DNA of 64,000 nucleotides from Patescibacteria group bacterium (GTDB lineage Bacteria > Patescibacteriota > Patescibacteriia > UBA10025 > JBIOWE01): assembly GCA_044868145.1 (NCBI GenBank), contig JBIOWE010000006.1, forward strand, positions 151,707-215,706, in the 5' to 3' direction. The notes beneath the pieces are model-generated. The model ran no database searches. It was given only the letters and a program-made list of their open reading frames with translations, and was not told the DNA's origin. A program made the translations under genes and the position numbers. Positions 3,498-21,812 of the stretch are shown one piece after another. How positions within the stretch are numbered: the stretch's first letter is position 1; the number at the start of each line of letters is the position of its first letter.

Positions 3498-4496
3498 ATG
3501 CCGACATTTGATGTGATTACCATCGGGAGTGCGACGCGAGACGTCTATCTGTTTAGCAAAAAATTTCACGTGATCAAGGACCGACGCATGCCGACCGGGC
3601 AGGCGGAGAGCTTCGCGTTTGGGACAAAAATCGAATTGGACCGCGTGTTGCTTGAGGTTGGCGGCGGCGCCACAAATACGGCGTTCACGCTGGCGCGTCA
3701 GGGTTTCCGCGTGGGCAGCGTCGTCAGGGTCGGTCGCGACCAGGCAGGGACGGAAATCGTCGATTTTTTAAAGCGACACCATATAACCCCGTTTGTGACG
3801 GTTGATCCGAAGCGTCCAACAGGATTTTCCGTTGTTTTTCTGACGAAATCCGGCGAACGCACAATTCTTGTGTATCGAGGAGCGAGCGACGCTATGCAGA
3901 GCGCCAACGTATCCTGGCAAGCTTTGGGCAAAACGAAATGGGTCTATATGACCTCGGTAAGCGGAAACGTTCCACTTATGAAACGGGTCGTCGGATTTTC
4001 GCGCAAGCGAGGTATCCGCGTTGCCGTCAATTTCGGGAAGCGCGAACTCGCCTTCGGCTTCAAGCGCTTATTGCCAGTTATTCAGAATGCGGACGTAACT
4101 TTTTTGAATCGTGAAGAAGCATCCAAGCTTTTTAGCGTACGCCCAAGCGACACGCGAGCACTCATTGCAAAGTTGAAAACCATGCGCTACGGCATGTTTG
4201 TTGTAACAGAAGGTAAGCGCGGTTCGATGGCGTTTGACCAATCGCGTCTTTTTACGGTTCGCGTAAAGCAAGTGAAGGTAAAAGATACCACGGGCGCTGG
4301 AGATGCGTTTGGCTCAGGATTTCTCGCAGGCTACATGCGAACCAAGAATATTCGACACGCGCTTACGTTTGGGTCCTTAAACGCTGCGGCAGACGTCCAG
4401 GCGATCGGCGCGAAGCATGGCGCGCTTGGCAGGGTGCGCGCTATTTCGAGCGATCCTTCTATCAAGATTACTATTGAAAAAATCCCAGGCACCTGA
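3498..4496 (+). CDS. PfkB-family carbohydrate/ribokinase-like kinase
   Basis: C-terminal DTTGAGDAF anion-hole motif and GG dipeptide N-terminal motif. Confidence 0.8.
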   Translation: MPTFDVITIGSATRDVYLFSKKFHVIKDRRMPTGQAESFAFGTKIELDRVLLEVGGGATNTAFTLARQGFRVGSVVRVGRDQAGTEIVDFLKRHHITPFVTVDPKRPTGFSVVFLTKSGERTILVYRGASDAMQSANVSWQALGKTKWVYMTSVSGNVPLMKRVVGFSRKRGIRVAVNFGKRELAFGFKRLLPVIQNADVTFLNREEASKLFSVRPSDTRALIAKLKTMRYGMFVVTEGKRGSMAFDQSRLFTVRVKQVKVKDTTGAGDAFGSGFLAGYMRTKNIRHALTFGSLNAAADVQAIGAKHGALGRVRAISSDPSIKITIEKIPGT

Positions 4497-4529
4497 TATA
4501 GTAGCCGTCATGATTCACGTAAACTGCTT

Positions 4530-6062
4530 ATGAACACGAAGAGCAGTTTTTTAGTCTCAAAATTGAATTTTTGGTCACGTCTCTCTGACCATACAAAGTA
4601 CCGGATACTCGAAATGATTCCGGGTTTGCTCGTTTGGACCACGTTTTTTTTCGCGCTTTTCTTTTCATTCATTAAGCCTCTTTGGGTAATCTATTTTATC
4701 CTCGTCTTCGATTTACTGTGGCTCATCCGCATACTCTACGTCACAATTTACATTATTGTTTCATACAAACGCTTCCGACAAGCATTGAAAGTCAATTGGC
4801 TAGAAAAGTTGCGGGCAACGCCCCGATGGGGGGAGTTTGTTCATACAATTTTTATCCCAACGTACAAAGAACCGATCGAGGTGCTCGACACAACCTTTCA
4901 GGCGCTGATACATTCGGACTACCCGCTTGAGAAATTTATCGTCATCCTCGCCGGAGAAGAGCGCGATCATGAGCAGTTCGTCAAGAATGCGCGGTTGATC
5001 CAAGAACGCTACGGATCGAAATTTGGGTATTTGATGGTTACGCTGCACCCTAAGGATATTGTCGGTCAGATTGCGGGTAAGGGGTCCAATCTGGCATTCG
5101 CAGGCAGGCAAGCGCAAGAATACATTGACAGCAAAGGAATTCCATACGAAAACGTGATCGTTTCTTCTTTTGATGCGGATACTTGCGTCCACCCGCAATA
5201 TTTCAGCTACTTGACCTATAAATATTTGACCTGTGAAAATCCAACGCGGACGAGTTTCCAGCCTCTAGCACTCTTTAACAATAATATTTGGCAAGCGCCG
5301 GCGTTCAGCCGCGTCGTTTCCTACAGCACGACGTTTTGGTTGCTTTCCGAACAGGTGCGGCCTGAGCGGATGTTCACATTCTCTTCCCATAGCATGAGTT
5401 TTAAGGCGCTTGTTGAAGTCGGCTTTTGGCAGGATGACATCGTGACCGAGGACTCTCGTATTGTTATCCAGTGTTTGATTCATTACGATGGCGCGTATAA
5501 GGTTGAACCTTTATATATCCCGTTATCTATGGATACGGTGCACGGCAAGAACCTTTGGGATACGATTAAAAATCAATATCGCCAGGTGCGGCGGTGGGCG
5601 TACGGCGTGGAGAATTTTCCTTATATGGCATGGAATTTTATCGGAAACAAACGCATGCCGTTTCTGGTGAAATGGCGCTATATGTGGAATCAATTGGAAG
5701 GCGTCTATTCCTGGGCGACTGCGCCGATTCTTATTACGATTCTTGGCCGCTTGCCCGTGTGGATCGCGAACCAGCGGGAGGAAGTTGCCGCAGCTGCTCA
5801 AAACGCGCCAGAGATACTTCAGGTGATTCTGACCATTTCCATGATCGGTATTTTTATTTCCGCCATGCTCGCAACATCGCTCTTACCCCCACGGCCGCAA
5901 TCATTCAAGCCCTGGAAACTCCTGTTTATGGTCGTGCAGTGGATTTTTTTGCCGGTCACGCTCATTTTTTTCGGTTCCATTCCGGCGATTGAAGCGCAAA
6001 CGCGGCTCATGCTCGGCAAATATCTGGGGTTCCATGTGACGGAAAAGGTAAGGAAAAGTTAA
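4530..6062 (+). CDS. Processive GT2 beta-glycosyltransferase (cellulose-synthase-like), polytopic membrane protein
   Basis: DAD, TED and QVRRW (QxxRW) motifs. N- and C-terminal transmembrane helices. Confidence 0.7.
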   Translation: MNTKSSFLVSKLNFWSRLSDHTKYRILEMIPGLLVWTTFFFALFFSFIKPLWVIYFILVFDLLWLIRILYVTIYIIVSYKRFRQALKVNWLEKLRATPRWGEFVHTIFIPTYKEPIEVLDTTFQALIHSDYPLEKFIVILAGEERDHEQFVKNARLIQERYGSKFGYLMVTLHPKDIVGQIAGKGSNLAFAGRQAQEYIDSKGIPYENVIVSSFDADTCVHPQYFSYLTYKYLTCENPTRTSFQPLALFNNNIWQAPAFSRVVSYSTTFWLLSEQVRPERMFTFSSHSMSFKALVEVGFWQDDIVTEDSRIVIQCLIHYDGAYKVEPLYIPLSMDTVHGKNLWDTIKNQYRQVRRWAYGVENFPYMAWNFIGNKRMPFLVKWRYMWNQLEGVYSWATAPILITILGRLPVWIANQREEVAAAAQNAPEILQVILTISMIGIFISAMLATSLLPPRPQSFKPWKLLFMVVQWIFLPVTLIFFGSIPAIEAQTRLMLGKYLGFHVTEKVRKS

Positions 6063-6114: not shown

Positions 6115-7092
6115 TCATTCCAATTTTGCCTTCCCAATTTCCGGGCGTCCCTTTAAAAAATCTGCGCTGTCCATTTCCTTTTTTCCTTCGAGTTGCAGTC
6201 GCTCGAAAATTAAACTGCCTTTGCCACAGGTGACGGCAAGCTTGTTGTCCGTCGTGAGAAATGTTTTGCCGAGCAACGTGTTATCCGCGCAGGAGATGTG
6301 AGGGTTGAGAACGCTTGCCCTGGTTATTTTCAACATGGCGTTTGTGTCATGACGATGCCATAAAGTCCACGCGCCTGGCCAGGGGGTGAACGCTCGGATC
6401 TTTCTCTCTATCTCAATCGCGGAAGTTGACCAATCGATTTTGCCGTCTTCTTTTTTTATTATTTTAGTGTACGTCGCTTTGTCCTTGTCCTGCGGCGTTG
6501 GTTTGAGCTTTCCCTCGAGATAGGGGAGAAGCGCCCGTTCCAAAAGTCTGGCACTCTTTTTGGCAAGCAAATCGTGCAGCGTGTCAAATCTCTCATTGCG
6601 GGTGACGAGCGCGGTTTCTTGCGCGATAATCGGGCCGGTGTCCATGCTCTCGTCTATTTTCATCAAGGTGACGCCGCTTACCGAGTCGCCGCTCAGAATC
6701 GTGTGCTGTATCGGCGAAGCACCGCGCCAGCGCGGTAGCAGCGAAGCGTGCAAATTTAAAAATCCATGCTCGGGTATTGCAAGGATATTCGCCGGAATAA
6801 TTTTTCCGTATGCAATGACAATGGCCAGGTCGGGTCTTTCGGCTTTGACCCGTTCCTCGAATTCGTGCGTTTTGATTTTTTCCGGCAAAATAACGGGAAT
6901 GCGATGTTGTTCGGCTGCGAGTTTAACCGGCGACGCCGTTATTGTTTGTTTTCTGCCGACTGGCTTATCCGGTTGAGAGACGACCAAGCGAAGGTCCAGG
7001 TAGGGGAGTGTGAGAATTTTTTCCAGTGTCGGAAGACTGAAATCAGGCGTACCAAAGAAAATTGTCCTGTACTTTTTCTGTGACTGGTTCAT
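6115..7092 (-). CDS. fmt: Methionyl-tRNA formyltransferase
   Basis: Formyltransferase N-domain (IFFGTPDF, HASLLPRWRG) and C-terminal domain. Lies downstream of def. Confidence 0.9.
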   Translation of the reverse strand: MNQSQKKYRTIFFGTPDFSLPTLEKILTLPYLDLRLVVSQPDKPVGRKQTITASPVKLAAEQHRIPVILPEKIKTHEFEERVKAERPDLAIVIAYGKIIPANILAIPEHGFLNLHASLLPRWRGASPIQHTILSGDSVSGVTLMKIDESMDTGPIIAQETALVTRNERFDTLHDLLAKKSARLLERALLPYLEGKLKPTPQDKDKATYTKIIKKEDGKIDWSTSAIEIERKIRAFTPWPGAWTLWHRHDTNAMLKITRASVLNPHISCADNTLLGKTFLTTDNKLAVTCGKGSLIFERLQLEGKKEMDSADFLKGRPEIGKAKLE

Positions 7093-16627: not shown

Positions 16628-16848
16628 AAAGGATCGTCTGGATTATTATTTTTATTGTTCTCGCCGGTCTTTTGTATTACGGCTGGCGGAATCGTTCAGC
16701 TTTGCCAGTTATCGGCACAAACACGGACGTCAATGCGAAGAAAAGCCGAAACTTGGATTATTATTGCAATTTGCCGAATATTCCCAGTGATTATCAAAAG
16801 GATTGCGATAATTTCAAAAACGGATTTAACAGCGGACTTATACGATGA
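16624..16848 (+). CDS. Hypothetical membrane-anchored protein (74 aa)
   Basis: ATGA overlap with the upstream ORF. Its stop overlaps the xseA start. Confidence 0.4.
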   Translation: MKRIVWIIIFIVLAGLLYYGWRNRSALPVIGTNTDVNAKKSRNLDYYCNLPNIPSDYQKDCDNFKNGFNSGLIR

Positions 16849-18002
16849 AAGTTTATACCGTCTCTGAATTCAATAGCGCCTTGAAGTCCTACCTGGAAGA
16901 GGGGATGGCCAGCGTAGCAATTCAGGGCGAAGTCACTAGTTATCGAAAAGCCAAAGAAAAGCTTATCTATTTTGAGCTGAAGGATGACAAGGCGCGCGTG
17001 CTTTGTTTTATGCTCACGTGGGAGCTCAAAACGATTCTCGAGGATGGCATGGAAATCCGCGTGCACGGAAAGCCATCAATCTTCGTCGGCACAGGCGGTT
17101 TTCACGTCCGCGTGAAAGAAATCGAGCTGGTTGGCGCCGGCGCGCTACGAAAAGCGCTTGAACAACTTAAGCAAAAGCTTGAAAAAGAAGGGTTGTTCGC
17201 TCCAGAGCGCAAGCGTCCTTTGCCCCGTTTTCCATCGCATATTGGTTTGATCACCTCGCCGGACGCCGCCGCGTATACGGACGTCCTACGCATATTGAAA
17301 AATCGTTGGGCAGGCGTGACCGTGCACTTCTACCCGGTTTCTGTGCAAGGGTTCGGCGCCATCAAGGACATCATAGGCGCATTCAAATACTTCAATCGTA
17401 CGCACGAGGTAGAAGTGATTATTCTTACGCGCGGCGGCGGCAGTCTGGAAGATTTGCAAGCGTTCAACGCGGAAGACGTGGCCCGCGCTGTATTCGCGTC
17501 AACAATTCCCGTGGTATCCGGCGTTGGCCATGAACGCGACGTAACGATTGCCGACCTTGTTGCTGACCAGCGCGCTTCGACCCCTTCCAACGCTGCGGAA
17601 CGCGTTGTGCCGGATAAACATGAGGTACAAGCCGAACTCAGCTACATGGCTGAACGCCTGGAAGAACTTCTGCGACAGGAACTAGAAAGTAAGAACTTAT
17701 TTATTTCCACATTCGTTAGCAGATTTGAAGACTTGATACGACACAAACACACAGCTATAATAGAGAAAATTCTTCGCCTCAAGCAATCAGGCACGTATCT
17801 CATTCAGACGTGGCAAAATCGCATTCAAGAACATGAGCGTTTGCTCAAAACCCTTTCCCCGCAAGCAACGCTCGATCGGGGCTATAGCATTACGCGTAGG
17901 ATAGGGGATAAGAAGATTATCGCTAGCCCAACAGAGGTAAAGCCCGGCGAACGTATTCGAACGCGCTTGAAAAAAGGTGAGATTGAATCGAAGGTACAAT
18001 AA
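16845..18002 (+). CDS. xseA: Exodeoxyribonuclease VII large subunit
   Basis: OB-fold N-terminus plus catalytic core. Followed by xseB. Confidence 0.85.
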   Translation: MKVYTVSEFNSALKSYLEEGMASVAIQGEVTSYRKAKEKLIYFELKDDKARVLCFMLTWELKTILEDGMEIRVHGKPSIFVGTGGFHVRVKEIELVGAGALRKALEQLKQKLEKEGLFAPERKRPLPRFPSHIGLITSPDAAAYTDVLRILKNRWAGVTVHFYPVSVQGFGAIKDIIGAFKYFNRTHEVEVIILTRGGGSLEDLQAFNAEDVARAVFASTIPVVSGVGHERDVTIADLVADQRASTPSNAAERVVPDKHEVQAELSYMAERLEELLRQELESKNLFISTFVSRFEDLIRHKHTAIIEKILRLKQSGTYLIQTWQNRIQEHERLLKTLSPQATLDRGYSITRRIGDKKIIASPTEVKPGERIRTRLKKGEIESKVQ

Positions 18003-18004
18003 CT

Positions 18005-18238
18005 ATGGCCACAAAACAAAAGAAGAGCTTTGCAGAATCATTCGCAGAATTGGAAAAAATAACGGAGAAATTCGAGTCCGGCAATATTGACCTAGACCAA
18101 AGCTTGCAGGATTTTGAGCGCGGCTTGGCGTTAGCCAGTGAATTAAAGAAGCGTTTACAAGACGTGGAGAATAAAATCCGTACCATCAAAGATAAATTTG
18201 ATGATTTAGAGGACAAAGAGCCAGAAACCGAAGAATAG
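18005..18238 (+). CDS. xseB: Exodeoxyribonuclease VII small subunit
   Basis: 77-aa helical protein with an ELEKI..LE..DLDQSL pattern. Confidence 0.85.
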   Translation: MATKQKKSFAESFAELEKITEKFESGNIDLDQSLQDFERGLALASELKKRLQDVENKIRTIKDKFDDLEDKEPETEE

Positions 18239-18243
18239 CCGTA

Positions 18244-18339
18244 CCCCACACCATTTTTACAGTTTATGTTTCCTAACCCGTAACAGTTTACCACTTTTAC
18301 TATTTTGTTGTTTGAATGTCCTCTAAAAATGGTGTGGGG
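18244..18339. repeat. Long-range 16-bp perfect inverted repeat (CCCCACACCATTTTTA ... TAAAAATGGTGTGGGG) enclosing about 64 nt
   Basis: Read directly. Sits immediately before a promoter. Confidence 0.55.
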
Positions 18340-18368
18340 TTGACAGCAGTATTGTTATAGTATATACT
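18340..18368 (+). promoter_or_regulatory. Promoter TTGACA-17-TATACT followed by TATATACTA direct repeats
   Basis: Consensus hexamers. AGTATATACTA is repeated twice downstream. Confidence 0.55.
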
Positions 18369-18421
18369 AGGTATATATTAAGTATGAATGAAGTATATAC
18401 TAAGTATTAACGTTTTCTCCT

Positions 18422-18592
18422 ATGTACGACAATCGTTTGCGCAGAAAGGTGTTCCCGATCGGAAAGTACAGTTATGCGCTTACTGTGCCTAAGGATTTAT
18501 TGAAATTACTGGGTTGGCAGCCGGGGGAAGCGCTCGAAGTGGTGCCGGATTTGGGGAAAAAGCGAATTATTGTAAAGCGGTATAAGTTTTAG
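18422..18592 (+). CDS. AbrB/MazE/SpoVT-type (swapped-hairpin) DNA-binding protein, 56 aa; below the ORF-track cutoff
   Basis: MYDNRLRRKVFPIGKYSYALTVPKDLLKLLGWQPGEALEVVPDLGKKRIIVKRYKF matches the AbrB/MazE fold pattern. No SD. Confidence 0.55.
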   Translation: MYDNRLRRKVFPIGKYSYALTVPKDLLKLLGWQPGEALEVVPDLGKKRIIVKRYKF

Positions 18593-18747
18593 GAGACCCT
18601 GAATCAAGTTCAGGGTGACAATTAAAGACGGAATGCTCTTTTGCTGTCATGCTGAACCCTGTCCTGACGAATGTCAGGATTGTTTCAGCATCTCTATAGG
18701 TGAGGTCCCTCGCTCCGTCGCGTTTATATACGCGACTTCGCTCGGGA

Positions 18748-18793
18748 CGAAGGTCAAGTTTTCTTCATAAAGACTTGACCTTCGGTTTTTCTT
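18748..18793 (+). terminator. Rho-independent terminator (11-bp stem CGAAGGTCAAG / CTTGACCTTCG plus T-run) overlapping the next -35
   Basis: Read directly. Confidence 0.6.
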
Positions 18794-18803
18794 CGGCTAT
18801 ACT
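18775..18803 (+). promoter_or_regulatory. Promoter TTGACC-17-TATACT, 8 nt before the ATG at 18812
   Basis: Hexamers and spacing read directly. Confidence 0.5.
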
Positions 18804-18811
18804 AAAGAAGT

Positions 18812-19063
18812 ATGGAAGCCGAGGTTGTGGATATATTCGCTTCGTTTACGAAAGAAGGGCCAAGGCCTCAATTGATACGGCATAAGGGGCATAGTTATCG
18901 TATTAACCGCGTGAATTTGCATTATACGGCCAGGGAAGGGGGCAGGGTGGTCCATTATTTCGCGTGTTCCGACGATGCCAATTATTTCCAGTTGCGATTC
19001 GATCCGGTGGAATTACGCTGGCAATTGATGCAAATCGAGGATTACACGGAGCCAACTTCATGA
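18812..19063 (+). CDS. Hypothetical 83-aa protein, translationally coupled (ATGA) to dinB
   Basis: Its stop overlaps the dinB ATG at 19060. No recognisable motif. Confidence 0.45.
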   Translation: MEAEVVDIFASFTKEGPRPQLIRHKGHSYRINRVNLHYTAREGGRVVHYFACSDDANYFQLRFDPVELRWQLMQIEDYTEPTS

Positions 19064-20277
19064 ACCGTGTCGTTCTCCACCTGGACATGAACTCCTATTT
19101 TGCCTCAGTAGAACAGCAGGCAAATCCGTTTTTGCGGGGCAAGCCGGTTGGGGTCTGCGCGACTATGACAAAAAACGGCTGTATTATCGCGTCGTCGAAA
19201 GAGGCAAAAGCCGTTGGTATTAAGACGGGTTGTCGCGTGCAGGACGCGCTTTTTTTATATCCAAATGTCGCGCTTGTGCCGGTTGATCCGCCGAAATATC
19301 GTTCCACAACGCAAAAGATTTTTTCCATTATTGCGGAGTACACCGAAGACGTCGAGCATTATTCCATTGATGAAGCGTTTTTGAATCTCACGGGTTTCGT
19401 TGAGACGCTTGCGGAAGCAAAGGAGAAGGCTATGGAAATCCAACGGCGCGTCAAAGAGGAGGTGGGCGATTGGCTCACGTGTTCCATGGGTATAGCGCCG
19501 ACGCGCTGGCTTGCGAAGTTCGGGTCCGACACCGCGCCCAAAGGTGGAATTGTTGTGCTCAACCGTCAAAACCTTCTGGCGTATCTCAAGGGACGTGAAT
19601 TGACCGAGGCGTGGGGGATTGCGCATGGTTTGGAACGCCGGTTGCACGTGCTCGGGATTTGGACGCTTGACGAGCTGGCGCAATATCCGGTCGCGAATCT
19701 GATGCGCGTATTTGGTATTCGTGGATATGAGATGTGGGCCAACGTGAACGGTATTGAGTTCTCGCGGGTTGAGGAGCGACGCATCCCAAAGTCCATCGGC
19801 CATTCCCATGTGTTGCGTCGGCGCGTCCGTGACATTCAATTTCATCGCGCGGTGTTCATGCGCCTGTGCGAACGGACAGGTCGGCGCTTGCGCAACATGG
19901 GCCTGGAAGCCGGTGGCGTATTCGTACAGGTTGGCAGCGACATGGGCGGCGATGGCGGCGATAAGAAGTTAGCCGAGACTATTACCGGTAGCGATGAGAT
20001 TTTCCATCATACTTGGCAGATGATCGAGCGAACGGTTAGTATAGTTGTGCCGACGTTTTTTGCGGTGGGCGTGTTCCGTTTGCAGCCGATTTCCCAACAG
20101 CAGCGACTCTGGCGCAAGCCAAAGCGCCTTCATGTGTATAAAGCGCTGGATGAGATTAACGATAAGTTTGGCGAGGAAACAATTGTGTGGGGTTCGCTTC
20201 TTGGTCTAGAAAAGCATCATGCTCCGGATAGAATCGGGTTTCGGAAGACAGTAGGCTTGGATTGGCCATTGACATAA
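19060..20277 (+). CDS. dinB: DNA polymerase IV (Y-family)
   Basis: VLHLDMNSYFASVE N-terminus (catalytic Asp), Y-family palm and finger motifs. The track start is an upstream alternative codon. Confidence 0.85.
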   Translation: MNRVVLHLDMNSYFASVEQQANPFLRGKPVGVCATMTKNGCIIASSKEAKAVGIKTGCRVQDALFLYPNVALVPVDPPKYRSTTQKIFSIIAEYTEDVEHYSIDEAFLNLTGFVETLAEAKEKAMEIQRRVKEEVGDWLTCSMGIAPTRWLAKFGSDTAPKGGIVVLNRQNLLAYLKGRELTEAWGIAHGLERRLHVLGIWTLDELAQYPVANLMRVFGIRGYEMWANVNGIEFSRVEERRIPKSIGHSHVLRRRVRDIQFHRAVFMRLCERTGRRLRNMGLEAGGVFVQVGSDMGGDGGDKKLAETITGSDEIFHHTWQMIERTVSIVVPTFFAVGVFRLQPISQQQRLWRKPKRLHVYKALDEINDKFGEETIVWGSLLGLEKHHAPDRIGFRKTVGLDWPLT

Positions 20278-20434
20278 TGTGTATCACGTTTACCTTCAGT
20301 TGTCATTTCGAACCTCGACCCTGAGTTTATCGAAGGGGCGGGGTGAGAAATCTCCAAGCTATGAGGTACTGGCCAGGAGATTTCTCGTCCCTCGACAAGC
20401 TCGGGACTCGAAATGACAGCCAGGTTGACCTGCT

Positions 20435-20463
20435 ACCAGACGCTTGGTATACTGGGCGTAAGA
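20435..20463 (+). promoter_or_regulatory. Promoter TTGACC-17-TATACT upstream of dcd
   Basis: Hexamers read directly. Confidence 0.5.
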
Positions 20464-20470
20464 ATTTTTT

Positions 20471-21028
20471 ATGTCTATCAAATCTGATCGGTGGATTCGC
20501 GAGATGTCATTGAAGCACGGCATGATCAAGCCGTTTGCGAAGCGTCAAGTGCGCAAGGGGGTCGTCTCGTACGGTCTTTCTTCGTATGGATACGATATCC
20601 GCGTGGCGGACGAATTCATGATTTTTACCAACGTGAATTCCGCGATCGTTGATCCAAAGCAAATCAATCATGAAAAGTTGCTCGTGCGGGTGAAAGCGCC
20701 TTTCATCATGATTCCGCCAAATTCGTTTGCGCTTGCGCGTACTTTGGAATATTTCAAAATTCCGCGCAACGTCCTGGCTATTTGTCTCGGAAAGTCCACC
20801 TACGCGCGATGCGGAATCATCGTGAATGTGACGCCTTTTGAACCGGAATGGGAGGGATTCGTGACTGTTGAAATTTCCAATACCACGCCGCTGCCAGCGA
20901 AAATTTATGCGAATGAGGGAATCGCGCAGGTTCTGTTTCTCGAGTCAGACGAAGTGTGCGAAGTGTCGTATAAAGATCGCAAAGGGAAATACCAAAGCCA
21001 GAAGAAAATAACCTTGCCGAAAATTTAG
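20471..21028 (+). CDS. dcd: dCTP deaminase
   Basis: Dcd/dUTPase-fold motifs (SSYGYD, GxIxN). Confidence 0.85.
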
Positions 21029-21089
21029 GTCCTTCACGAACAAAAAAACCCAGAGCAGGCGGCTCTGCCCCGTATAAAATTTTACGGGG

Positions 21090-21148
21090 CTCTGCCTGCG
21101 ATAGGTTTTCCTGGTTCACGCCCATCGCACCCACGGCGGGGCGCGCTG
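21090..21148. repeat. Intergenic repeat element, copy 2 (see 11917-11975)
   Basis: Conserved 17-nt and 24-nt ends, preceded by two short hairpins. Confidence 0.6.
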
Positions 21149-21156
21149 GGTCTTCA

Positions 21157-21185
21157 TTGCAATCATGCAATTTTTTCGCTACAAT
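21157..21185 (+). promoter_or_regulatory. Promoter TTGCAA-17-TACAAT, 6 nt before the ATG at 21192
   Basis: Lies inside the 5' end of the track ORF 21165, arguing for the later start. Confidence 0.5.
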
Positions 21186-21191
21186 GAAGTC

Positions 21192-21812
21192 ATGAAAAAG
21201 CTTTTTTTGGATATTGAAACACTGCCCGCGGATCGGCTAGTCTGGGAGAAAGTTCGCGTTGGCATAAGCGATCGTTCTTCGTATGGAAAAAAATCTTACA
21301 GCGAAGACGAGCTGTACCGACGCACAGCCCTTGATGGAAATTTTGGTCGTTTGCTTTGCATTGGCTATGCGAAAGAACCGCCAGCCGGCAGCAAGTCCCA
21401 GATTATCATCGGCGACGAGGTGAAAATTTTGAAAAAGTTTTGGGACGTGGCCAAGGATGTTGACGTGTTTATCGGCCATAATATCATGGATTTTGATTTA
21501 CGCTTTATTTATAAACGTTCCGTCGTAAACAACGTGAAGCCGACGAAGTTTTTGAGCTTTGCACGGTATCGGAACAACCCTATCTTCGACACGTTGTACG
21601 AGTGGGATAAGTGGGTCGTGCGCAATACAGAGCACACGTCGCTTGATAAGCTGGCGAAAGCGCTTGATATTCCGTCATCGAAAGGAGAGCTCGACGGCTC
21701 AAAGGTATATGATTACTACCAGAACGGCAAATTGAAAGAGATTTACGATTATTGCAAAGCGGACGTTGAAGTGACCCGTCAGGTATACAAACGCATGACG
21801 TTTGAACCCTAA
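21192..21812 (+). CDS. RNase H-like 3'-5' exonuclease (DnaQ/PolB-exo-like)
   Basis: FLDIETLP Exo I motif, a later HN..FD motif and YxxxD Exo III-like motif. Confidence 0.6.
   Translation: MKKLFLDIETLPADRLVWEKVRVGISDRSSYGKKSYSEDELYRRTALDGNFGRLLCIGYAKEPPAGSKSQIIIGDEVKILKKFWDVAKDVDVFIGHNIMDFDLRFIYKRSVVNNVKPTKFLSFARYRNNPIFDTLYEWDKWVVRNTEHTSLDKLAKALDIPSSKGELDGSKVYDYYQNGKLKEIYDYCKADVEVTRQVYKRMTFEP

Follow-up and report, generated by a model that had tools for sequence, protein, structure and literature searches.

The open reading frame (ORF) considered here lies in a 64-kb stretch of contig JBIOWE010000006.1 from a Patescibacteria group bacterium (the window), where it encodes a protein of 83 aa and runs directly into dinB, the gene for a Y-family DNA polymerase. 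A first-pass annotation of the sequence had proposed that this small protein may be an accessory factor of the polymerase and translated together with it. The features that make up the two-gene region are as follows:

18775 to 18803, + strand: sigma-70-type promoter, TTGACC-17-TATACT, with the -35 hexamer at 18775-18780 and the -10 hexamer at 18798-18803 (10 of 12 matches), ending 8 nt before the small-gene ATG
18780 to 18796, + strand: direct repeat CTTCGGTTTTTCTTCGG (CTTCGG-N6-TTCGG, of the form NTTC-N7-NTTC) in the promoter spacer, a probable LexA operator
18812 to 19063, + strand: ORF of 83 aa (ATG at 18812, TGA at 19061-19063), assigned below to the ImuB-C family as a divergent, DUF6504-like, all-beta, standalone member
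19048 to 19051, + strand: GGAG, Shine-Dalgarno-like for dinB, within the 3' end of the small gene and 8 nt 5' of the dinB ATG
19060 to 19063, + strand: ATGA stop/start overlap that fits translational coupling, with comparable overlaps in the relative loci L091, L020 and L094
19060 to 20277, + strand: Y-family polymerase DinB/PolY of 405 aa with IMS and IMS_C domains and the catalytic residues D9, D104 and E105 present

The overlap of the small-gene stop with the dinB ATG (ATGA at 19060) that the first-pass annotation described is borne out by the sequence and by the list of ORFs, as is the promoter that it placed 8 nt before the small-gene ATG. The dinB start at ATG 19060-19062 is conserved, a profile of 33 close homologues aligning from that codon, and on the same profile a longer start at GTG 18964 was rejected. 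The promoter of the small gene is also conserved in the related loci L001-L004 and L007 (L-numbers denote the relative loci compared and P-numbers the family members found by phmmer). Since just 8 nt separate the promoter from the small-gene ATG and no Shine-Dalgarno sequence precedes that ATG, it is reasonable to infer a leaderless or near-leaderless mRNA, and with promoters placed 20-140 nt upstream of the gene in relatives this layout would be specific to this genome and not a trait of the family.

An exhaustive phmmer search with the 83-aa ORF as single query against 1.84 billion representative proteins (E<=1e-3) returned 115 matches, nearly all of 79-90 aa, with the top match at 55% identity (E=8e-22). 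One of these, P0130 (1025 aa with six matched stretches), was dropped as a repeat-driven false positive, leaving a family of 114 members, typically of about 82 aa, which spreads over many phyla at identities of 22% to 55%. A tryptophan, W70, is invariant in 114 of 114 members with the window protein included, and Pro, Gly and Phe residues are near-invariant. The family alignments of the small protein hold no conserved stretch of 7-10 columns, and a word-indexed protein search with the 83-aa protein returned only itself. Judged from these protein comparisons the 83-codon ORF is a real and conserved gene.

The protein very probably belongs to the ImuB-C superfamily. This domain was defined by Aravind, Anand & Iyer in 2013 as consisting mostly of beta-strands with a conserved C-terminal Trp and basic residues, and it is most often encoded beside DinB, frequently with LexA (PMC3765255). 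At E<=0.1 the Pfam model DUF6504 (PF20114) matches 59 of the 114 family members, the strongest match being at 5.8e-8. A few syntenic homologues pass its gathering cut-off of 24.2 bits, such as the small protein encoded upstream of dinB in L024 with 28.2 bits; that of L052 reaches 23 bits, and the nearest relatives of the window protein score 14-21 bits, below the cut-off. Five ImuBs were taken from plasmid imuA-imuB-dnaE2 cassettes, which had been located by searching with E. coli DnaE; in three of the five, the last ~75 residues have DUF6504 as their best Pfam match apart from polymerase domains (E 2.4e-4 to 4e-3). When the 17,022 ORFs of all loci were searched with a hidden Markov model (HMM) built on these five ImuB C-termini, the top 7 non-ImuB matches all came from the small-protein family, the best being P0233 with nearly the whole domain aligned (E=3e-4). 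In addition, tblastn with one syntenic small protein against 7.3 Gb of plasmids gave 5 matches only, namely a hypothetical protein of 84 aa on Geobacter anodireducens pSD that is encoded between lexA and polY, three ImuB C-termini and one ImuB named 'DUF6504 family protein' by NCBI. The family HMM matches the G. anodireducens protein over its full length with 69.3 bits (E=5e-21). The link between the small protein and ImuB is indirect, and at the level of sequence comparison it is reached by three independent routes (DUF6504, the ImuB C-terminus HMM and tblastn). As the window protein falls outside the curated Pfam DUF6504 model we file it under the superfamily; neither DUF6504 nor PF20114 is mentioned in the literature searched.

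Two side observations concern the plasmid loci. On G. anodireducens pSD polY is split in overlapping frames (L099:3575-4971, frames 3575-4609 and 4438-4971) and is absent from the plasmid gene table, probably as a frameshifted pseudogene or through a sequencing error. A plasmid of Gluconobacter albidus carries a 77-aa hypothetical gene between imuB and dnaE2 in an otherwise standard cassette (L088:2264-2497), and by eye its product is unrelated to ImuB-C.

In order to place the small gene relative to dinB across genomes, 80 DinB loci were collected via dinB with one genome per species and scanned in six frames with the small-protein family HMM. On two contigs with close DinB homologues an 84-87-aa relative of the small protein lies upstream of each. 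The first scan gave a family match in 25 of 83 sources, all 25 upstream of dinB on the same strand, and with further loci added the final scan gave 30 loci with the small gene in this position. Their hosts belong to at least eight phyla and include Patescibacteria, Brocadia (Planctomycetota), Nitrospirota/Thermodesulfovibrionales, Thermodesulfobacteriota, WOR-3, Bipolaricaulota, Thermotogae and Coatesbacteria among others. In 16 of the DinB-selected loci the small-gene stop and dinB are -7 to +150 nt apart, and tight spacing (-23 to +28 nt) is seen in about 14 loci when the DinB-selected and protein-side loci are taken together. Seen from the side of the small protein, three of three further family members on long contigs directly precede an IMS polymerase gene, overlapping it by 4 nt in one case and by 23 nt in another and ending 2 nt short of it in the third. 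In 13 loci the gene immediately upstream of the small gene, and in the same orientation, is lexA, which reproduces the operon known from Geobacter.

The first-pass annotation had made its proposal depend on conservation of the ORF upstream of dinB and of its frame in relatives, and we find the position conserved in the 30 loci from the dinB side as well as from the small-protein side, with the frame clearly kept. Its idea of a small accessory factor of a Y-family polymerase is supported by this cross-phylum synteny and by membership in the ImuB-C family, already regarded in print as a putative small subunit that binds the polymerase (PMC3765255, PMC6511836, PMC12926913), but it missed both that the family already had a name and that the promoter holds a probable LexA operator.

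At some loci unrelated genes are inserted between the small gene and polY (L005:3503-4757, L021:1758-5000, L044:4143-4652 and L010:4251-4946), the inserts being a DinD-like gene, a DNA methyltransferase with an HNH-type endonuclease (a restriction-modification pair), a RusA-like gene and an opposite-strand glycosyltransferase. From these arrangements the ImuB-C/polY junction seems to tolerate or attract insertions with both flanking genes kept. In two Microgenomates-like genomes a further conserved 80-aa ORF lies 3' of polY (L094:4955-5197 and L095:5670-5912) and has no ImuB-C HMM match.

An AlphaFold2 model of the 83-aa protein has a predicted local distance difference test score (pLDDT) of 94.4 and consists of seven strands with no helices. 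Comparison of this model with known structures found no PDB relative and no enzyme-like match, nor any match to a nucleic-acid-binding, SH3-like or LexA-like fold. An all-beta model with no relative in the PDB agrees with a 2026 survey by Timinskas & Venclovas, in which ImuB-C was modelled as a novel-fold beta-barrel without PDB relatives that touches DnaE2's PHP domain as well as ImuA in the mutasome and was placed among putative PolY-binding regulatory subunits (PMC12926913). For Peptidase_S24 there is neither a Pfam or NCBIfam match in the window protein nor a fold match and no autocleavage site is evident, and YolD (PF08863) matches neither the window protein nor any of the 114 family members. 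The first-pass annotation was right to see no UmuD or YolD motif in the small protein, which is homologous to neither.

The partner gene encodes a Y-family polymerase that appears to be active, as judged from its domains and residues. Its sequence matches Pfam IMS (1.3e-42) and IMS_C (1.4e-9) and the NCBIfam 'DNA polymerase IV' models (about 1e-59), and it retains the catalytic carboxylates D9 (in LDMNSYF, read from the sequence) and D104/E105 (in SIDEAF, invariant in the clade alignment). The closest matches of the window polymerase are from Patescibacteria, many of them labelled Kerfeldbacteria. Three motifs lie in its C-terminal part:

20098 to 20112, + strand: QQRLW, at the same position as the clade consensus QLSLF beta-clamp-binding motif
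20143 to 20187, + strand: ALDEINDKFGEETIV, a RecA-NT-like motif corresponding to the N-terminal part of DUF4113 (PMC6511836)
20221 to 20250, + strand: APDRIGFRKT, a motif of the C-terminal tail, conserved within the polymerase clade in its Patescibacteria branch

The polymerase would thus carry a clamp-binding-like and a RecA-NT-like motif. The match between DUF4113 positions 5-23 and polymerase residues 361-379 is weak (E=0.033); DUF4113 matches 17 of 33 polymerase clade members (best 1.3e-4), and the motif [AM]LDxINx[RK][YF]G is present in all fetched polymerase homologues with or without a preceding small gene. No tail motif at the C-terminus of the polymerase sets the ImuB-C-linked genes apart, as the tails vary by lineage and not by the presence of the small gene.

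The direct repeat in the promoter spacer is probably a LexA operator, a putative assignment made from its position and its recurrence in relatives. The exact form TTCGG-N6-TTCGG occurs as a single copy in the window, and one-mismatch copies elsewhere in the window are at chance level. A near base-for-base arrangement of -35, box and -10, with the box itself identical, stands before lexA in L001 and before the small gene in L002, L003 and L004, in genomes of related Patescibacteria, the DinB proteins of which are just 56-69% identical to that of the window, and GTTC-N7-GTTC is found in the lexA promoters of L007, L010 and L011. The box lies upstream of lexA where lexA heads the operon and otherwise upstream of the small gene. 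The lexA promoters that share the repeat have the look of autoregulated ones. A direct-repeat LexA motif was reportedly described in a 2017 study of the Patescibacteria SOS network. GTTC-N7-GTTC is a known direct-repeat LexA motif of Alphaproteobacteria (PMC8565304), and a further paper cites that Patescibacteria SOS study among the direct-repeat LexA motif cases (PMC7739468).

In a Saccharibacteria genome a dinB with no ImuB-C gene is preceded at 34 nt by GTTCGGTCTTTGTTC (GTTC-N7-GTTC, L045:4967-4981), and lexA follows just downstream at 6376-6963. This suggests that the same direct-repeat operator may control polY in Patescibacteria lineages without the small subunit.

Established here are the gene and the family it belongs to, its conserved position beside dinB, the predicted fold, the motifs of the polymerase and a conserved operator-like box. 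We consider it likely that 18775-20277 is a two-gene translesion module, probably under SOS control, made up of a non-catalytic ImuB-C subunit and a Y-family polymerase. Because the box is common to the lexA and imuB-C promoters of relatives, LexA would be expected to bind between -35 and -10 and repress the promoter, and DNA damage would relieve the repression. The transcript would begin at about 18810, on the first ATG or no more than a few bases from it, and the 83-aa ImuB-C protein, whose gene is evident and whose expression is presumed, would be translated first. From the anatomy of the junction, ribosomes terminating at the TGA would re-initiate on the overlapping dinB ATG with the aid of the internal GGAG, so that both proteins would be made together. 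The small beta protein may then associate with the polymerase, perhaps also with RecA or the replicase, and serve to gate the bypass of lesions or to target it. The subunit role is proposed by analogy with ImuB, which has an ImuB-C domain, and with PolY-[ImuB-C]-RecA modules as modelled by AlphaFold in the literature, and a PolY-[ImuB-C](-RecA) complex would be expected by analogy from the synteny and those models.

A number of points weigh against the translesion module. The window protein has no Pfam or NCBIfam match even at E<=1, and it carries His24 in place of the Trp found in 85% of the family and His27 in place of the Arg/Lys found in 76%. The family HMM scores only 0.6 bits directly against ImuB, and hhalign of the family against the 5-sequence ImuB-C alignment gives P=0.005 and a probability of 7%, neither significant alone, so that the link to ImuB runs through intermediates. 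There is no lexA within the 64-kb window, for which reason LexA repression stays at the level of a proposal. Finally, in the literature the role of standalone ImuB-C is itself only a prediction and a Deinococcus review calls it unclear (PMC8072749).

Of the other roles that may be considered the best supported, though unlikely, has the small protein sensing DNA damage or serving as a DNA-binding adaptor: it would recognise lesions or stalled forks and recruit the polymerase and would not be a stable subunit. A role of this kind was proposed from the conserved basic residues of ImuB-C and from standalone ImuB-C genes beside non-polymerase repair genes such as Ku/ligase, SplB and SRAP (PMC3765255), and the family does retain several Lys/Arg-rich positions along with R41, which is kept in the window protein (76% R/K in the family, by the columns of the family alignment). 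However, the model matches no nucleic-acid-binding fold, the window protein has His at one of the basic positions, in later modelling ImuB-C makes protein-protein contacts with the DnaE2 PHP domain and with ImuA (PMC12926913), and the overlap of the genes suits a co-ordinated synthesis of both proteins.

There is a slim chance that the window protein makes up, together with P0122 as its nearest relative, a translationally coupled sub-branch in which Trp24 and Arg/Lys27 were lost and the partner or role possibly changed, for example to tethering the polymerase to the replicative PHP domain in a reduced genome of the candidate phyla radiation (CPR) without DnaE2 and ImuA. If true, the small protein would be a minimal polymerase-switch adaptor instead of a UmuD-like gate. 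Slightly less probable still is the general form of such a bridge, in which the small protein links the Y-family polymerase to Pol III alpha via the PHP domain and acts as a polymerase-switch adaptor in genomes without DnaE2; no dnaE2 or imuA lies beside the module in the window or in related loci, but the argument is purely one of analogy, ImuB-C being modelled to bind the PHP domain in DnaE2. That the small ORF makes no functional protein, being a chance frame or an upstream ORF whose translation merely regulates dinB, could be suspected from its shortness, from its lack of database annotation and of a Pfam match and from its absence among the called genes on record, but is excluded for practical purposes by the comparative data: conservation at the protein level (22-55% identity across phyla, invariant Trp), a confident fold prediction, and frame and position kept even where unrelated genes separate the small gene from dinB.

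The closest known counterpart of the translesion module is Geobacter's lexA-imuB-C-polY operon, which is damage-induced and forms one transcription unit (Timinskas & Venclovas 2019, PMC6511836); an entry in the supplement to the 2013 paper gives the order SRAP->LexA->ImuBC->DinB for G. sulfurreducens (PMC3765255). The likeness to the GSU0042-like arrangement consists in an all-beta protein of ~80 aa with an invariant C-terminal Trp directly 5' of an active, RecA-NT-bearing Y-family polymerase, and in LexA-linked regulation, which is probable for the window, lexA preceding the pair in relatives of the window. The comparison was made via the equivalent protein of Geobacter anodireducens (E=5e-21) and not via GSU0042. 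Unlike Geobacter, the window has no adjacent lexA, its two genes overlap (ATGA) and the host is a member of the Patescibacteria (CPR). The window protein is also divergent, with no Pfam match and with two His residues in place of the family's predominant Trp and Arg/Lys, and its probable operator is a direct repeat in contrast to the Geobacter palindrome GGTT-N10-AACC (PMC8565304).

With ImuB's C-terminal domain in the ImuA-ImuB-DnaE2 mutasome the window protein shares the DUF6504/ImuB-C superfamily, a non-catalytic beta-rich character and an association with an error-prone polymerase system, here probably SOS-linked as well. In ImuB this domain forms one chain with a catalytically dead polymerase, and models have it binding DnaE2 and ImuA, whereas the window protein is free-standing and lies beside an apparently active polymerase with no dnaE2 or imuA nearby. 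The imuY-imuB-C-dnaE2 cassette of Deinococcus, which was compared by description only and did not turn up in three stretches of 32-50 kb from Deinococcus deserti plasmid 1, likewise has a standalone ImuB-C of ~80 aa together with a Y-family protein, in an operon under LexA control (PMC8072749) as is probable for the window, but there ImuY is inactive, DnaE2 is present and ImuB-C lies downstream of the Y-family gene. UmuD'2C (Pol V) and the YolD/YqjX-YqjW/UvrX systems resemble the module, and are the functional analogy behind the first-pass annotation, in having a small accessory gene just 5' of a RecA-NT-bearing Y-family polymerase, with SOS control that is probable for the module, though neither UmuD nor YolD is homologous to the window protein, given the missing Peptidase_S24 and YolD matches and SH3-like or LexA-like fold.

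The intergenic regions on both flanks of the module are unusually structured, and two of the elements can be listed as features in their own right:

18748 to 18784, + strand: hairpin with 15-bp arms and a T-rich run, terminator-like for the upstream AbrB-like gene
20301 to 20418, + strand: long branched hairpin after dinB (-66 kcal/mol, z=-6.2), a probable operon end or insulator

The -35 hexamer falls within the right arm of the first hairpin, as does the first half of the operator-like repeat. Upstream, the intergenic region 18596-18800 holds four hairpins in a row (-41 and -43 kcal/mol, z -5.4 and -6.1), and downstream the intergenic region 20285-20425 has a 141-nt branched hairpin, with the next promoter at 20425-20453. 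The sequence GTCCCTCG...GCTCGGGAC is present in both flanks (18705-18748 and 20386-20407). Rfam gave no match within 18200-20700, and the hairpin arms of the flanks have neither an Rfam match nor another copy in the window. The structured flanks could be terminators, insulators or remnants of the boundaries of a mobile cassette.

Upstream of the module a gene for a 56-aa protein of AbrB/MazE type (SpoVT-AbrB fold) occupies 18422-18592 and is preceded by a strong promoter-like TTGACA-17-TATACT (11 of 12 matches), with no toxin gene after it. Three AT-rich direct and inverted repeats of AGTATATACTA stand before this gene at 18348-18407 and from their sequence look like an operator array. On the other side, two genes 3' of the proofreading-less Y-family polymerase and after dcd, a gene at 21165-21812 encodes a standalone 215-aa protein with a PolB-type 3'-5' exonuclease domain (DNA_pol_B_exo2, 2.6e-15). 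The region 16845-21812 as a whole is rich in genes of DNA metabolism (xseA, xseB, imuB-C, polY, dcd and the PolB-type exonuclease).

Proteins of this kind have been known computationally since 2013 and were revisited in 2019 and 2026, and the window protein is a divergent member of them. The first-pass annotation came upon the kind anew from the bare sequence. What is new here is a divergent Patescibacteria member which current family models miss, a family that on sequence comparison is broad in Patescibacteria and in several other phyla, and a box that by its sequence is clearly operator-like. The current picture of translesion synthesis is unaltered by it and the function of standalone ImuB-C is no more tractable here than elsewhere. 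Standalone ImuB-C proteins are widespread beside error-prone polymerases, with a function known by prediction only and no solved structure, and the family reaches well beyond what is detected by Pfam DUF6504. The locus gives a compact Patescibacteria example with two overlapping genes, one promoter and an operator-like box, and together the comparative set of more than 100 sequences, 30 syntenic loci and a model of pLDDT 94 would be a practical basis for co-expression, structure determination and bypass assays.

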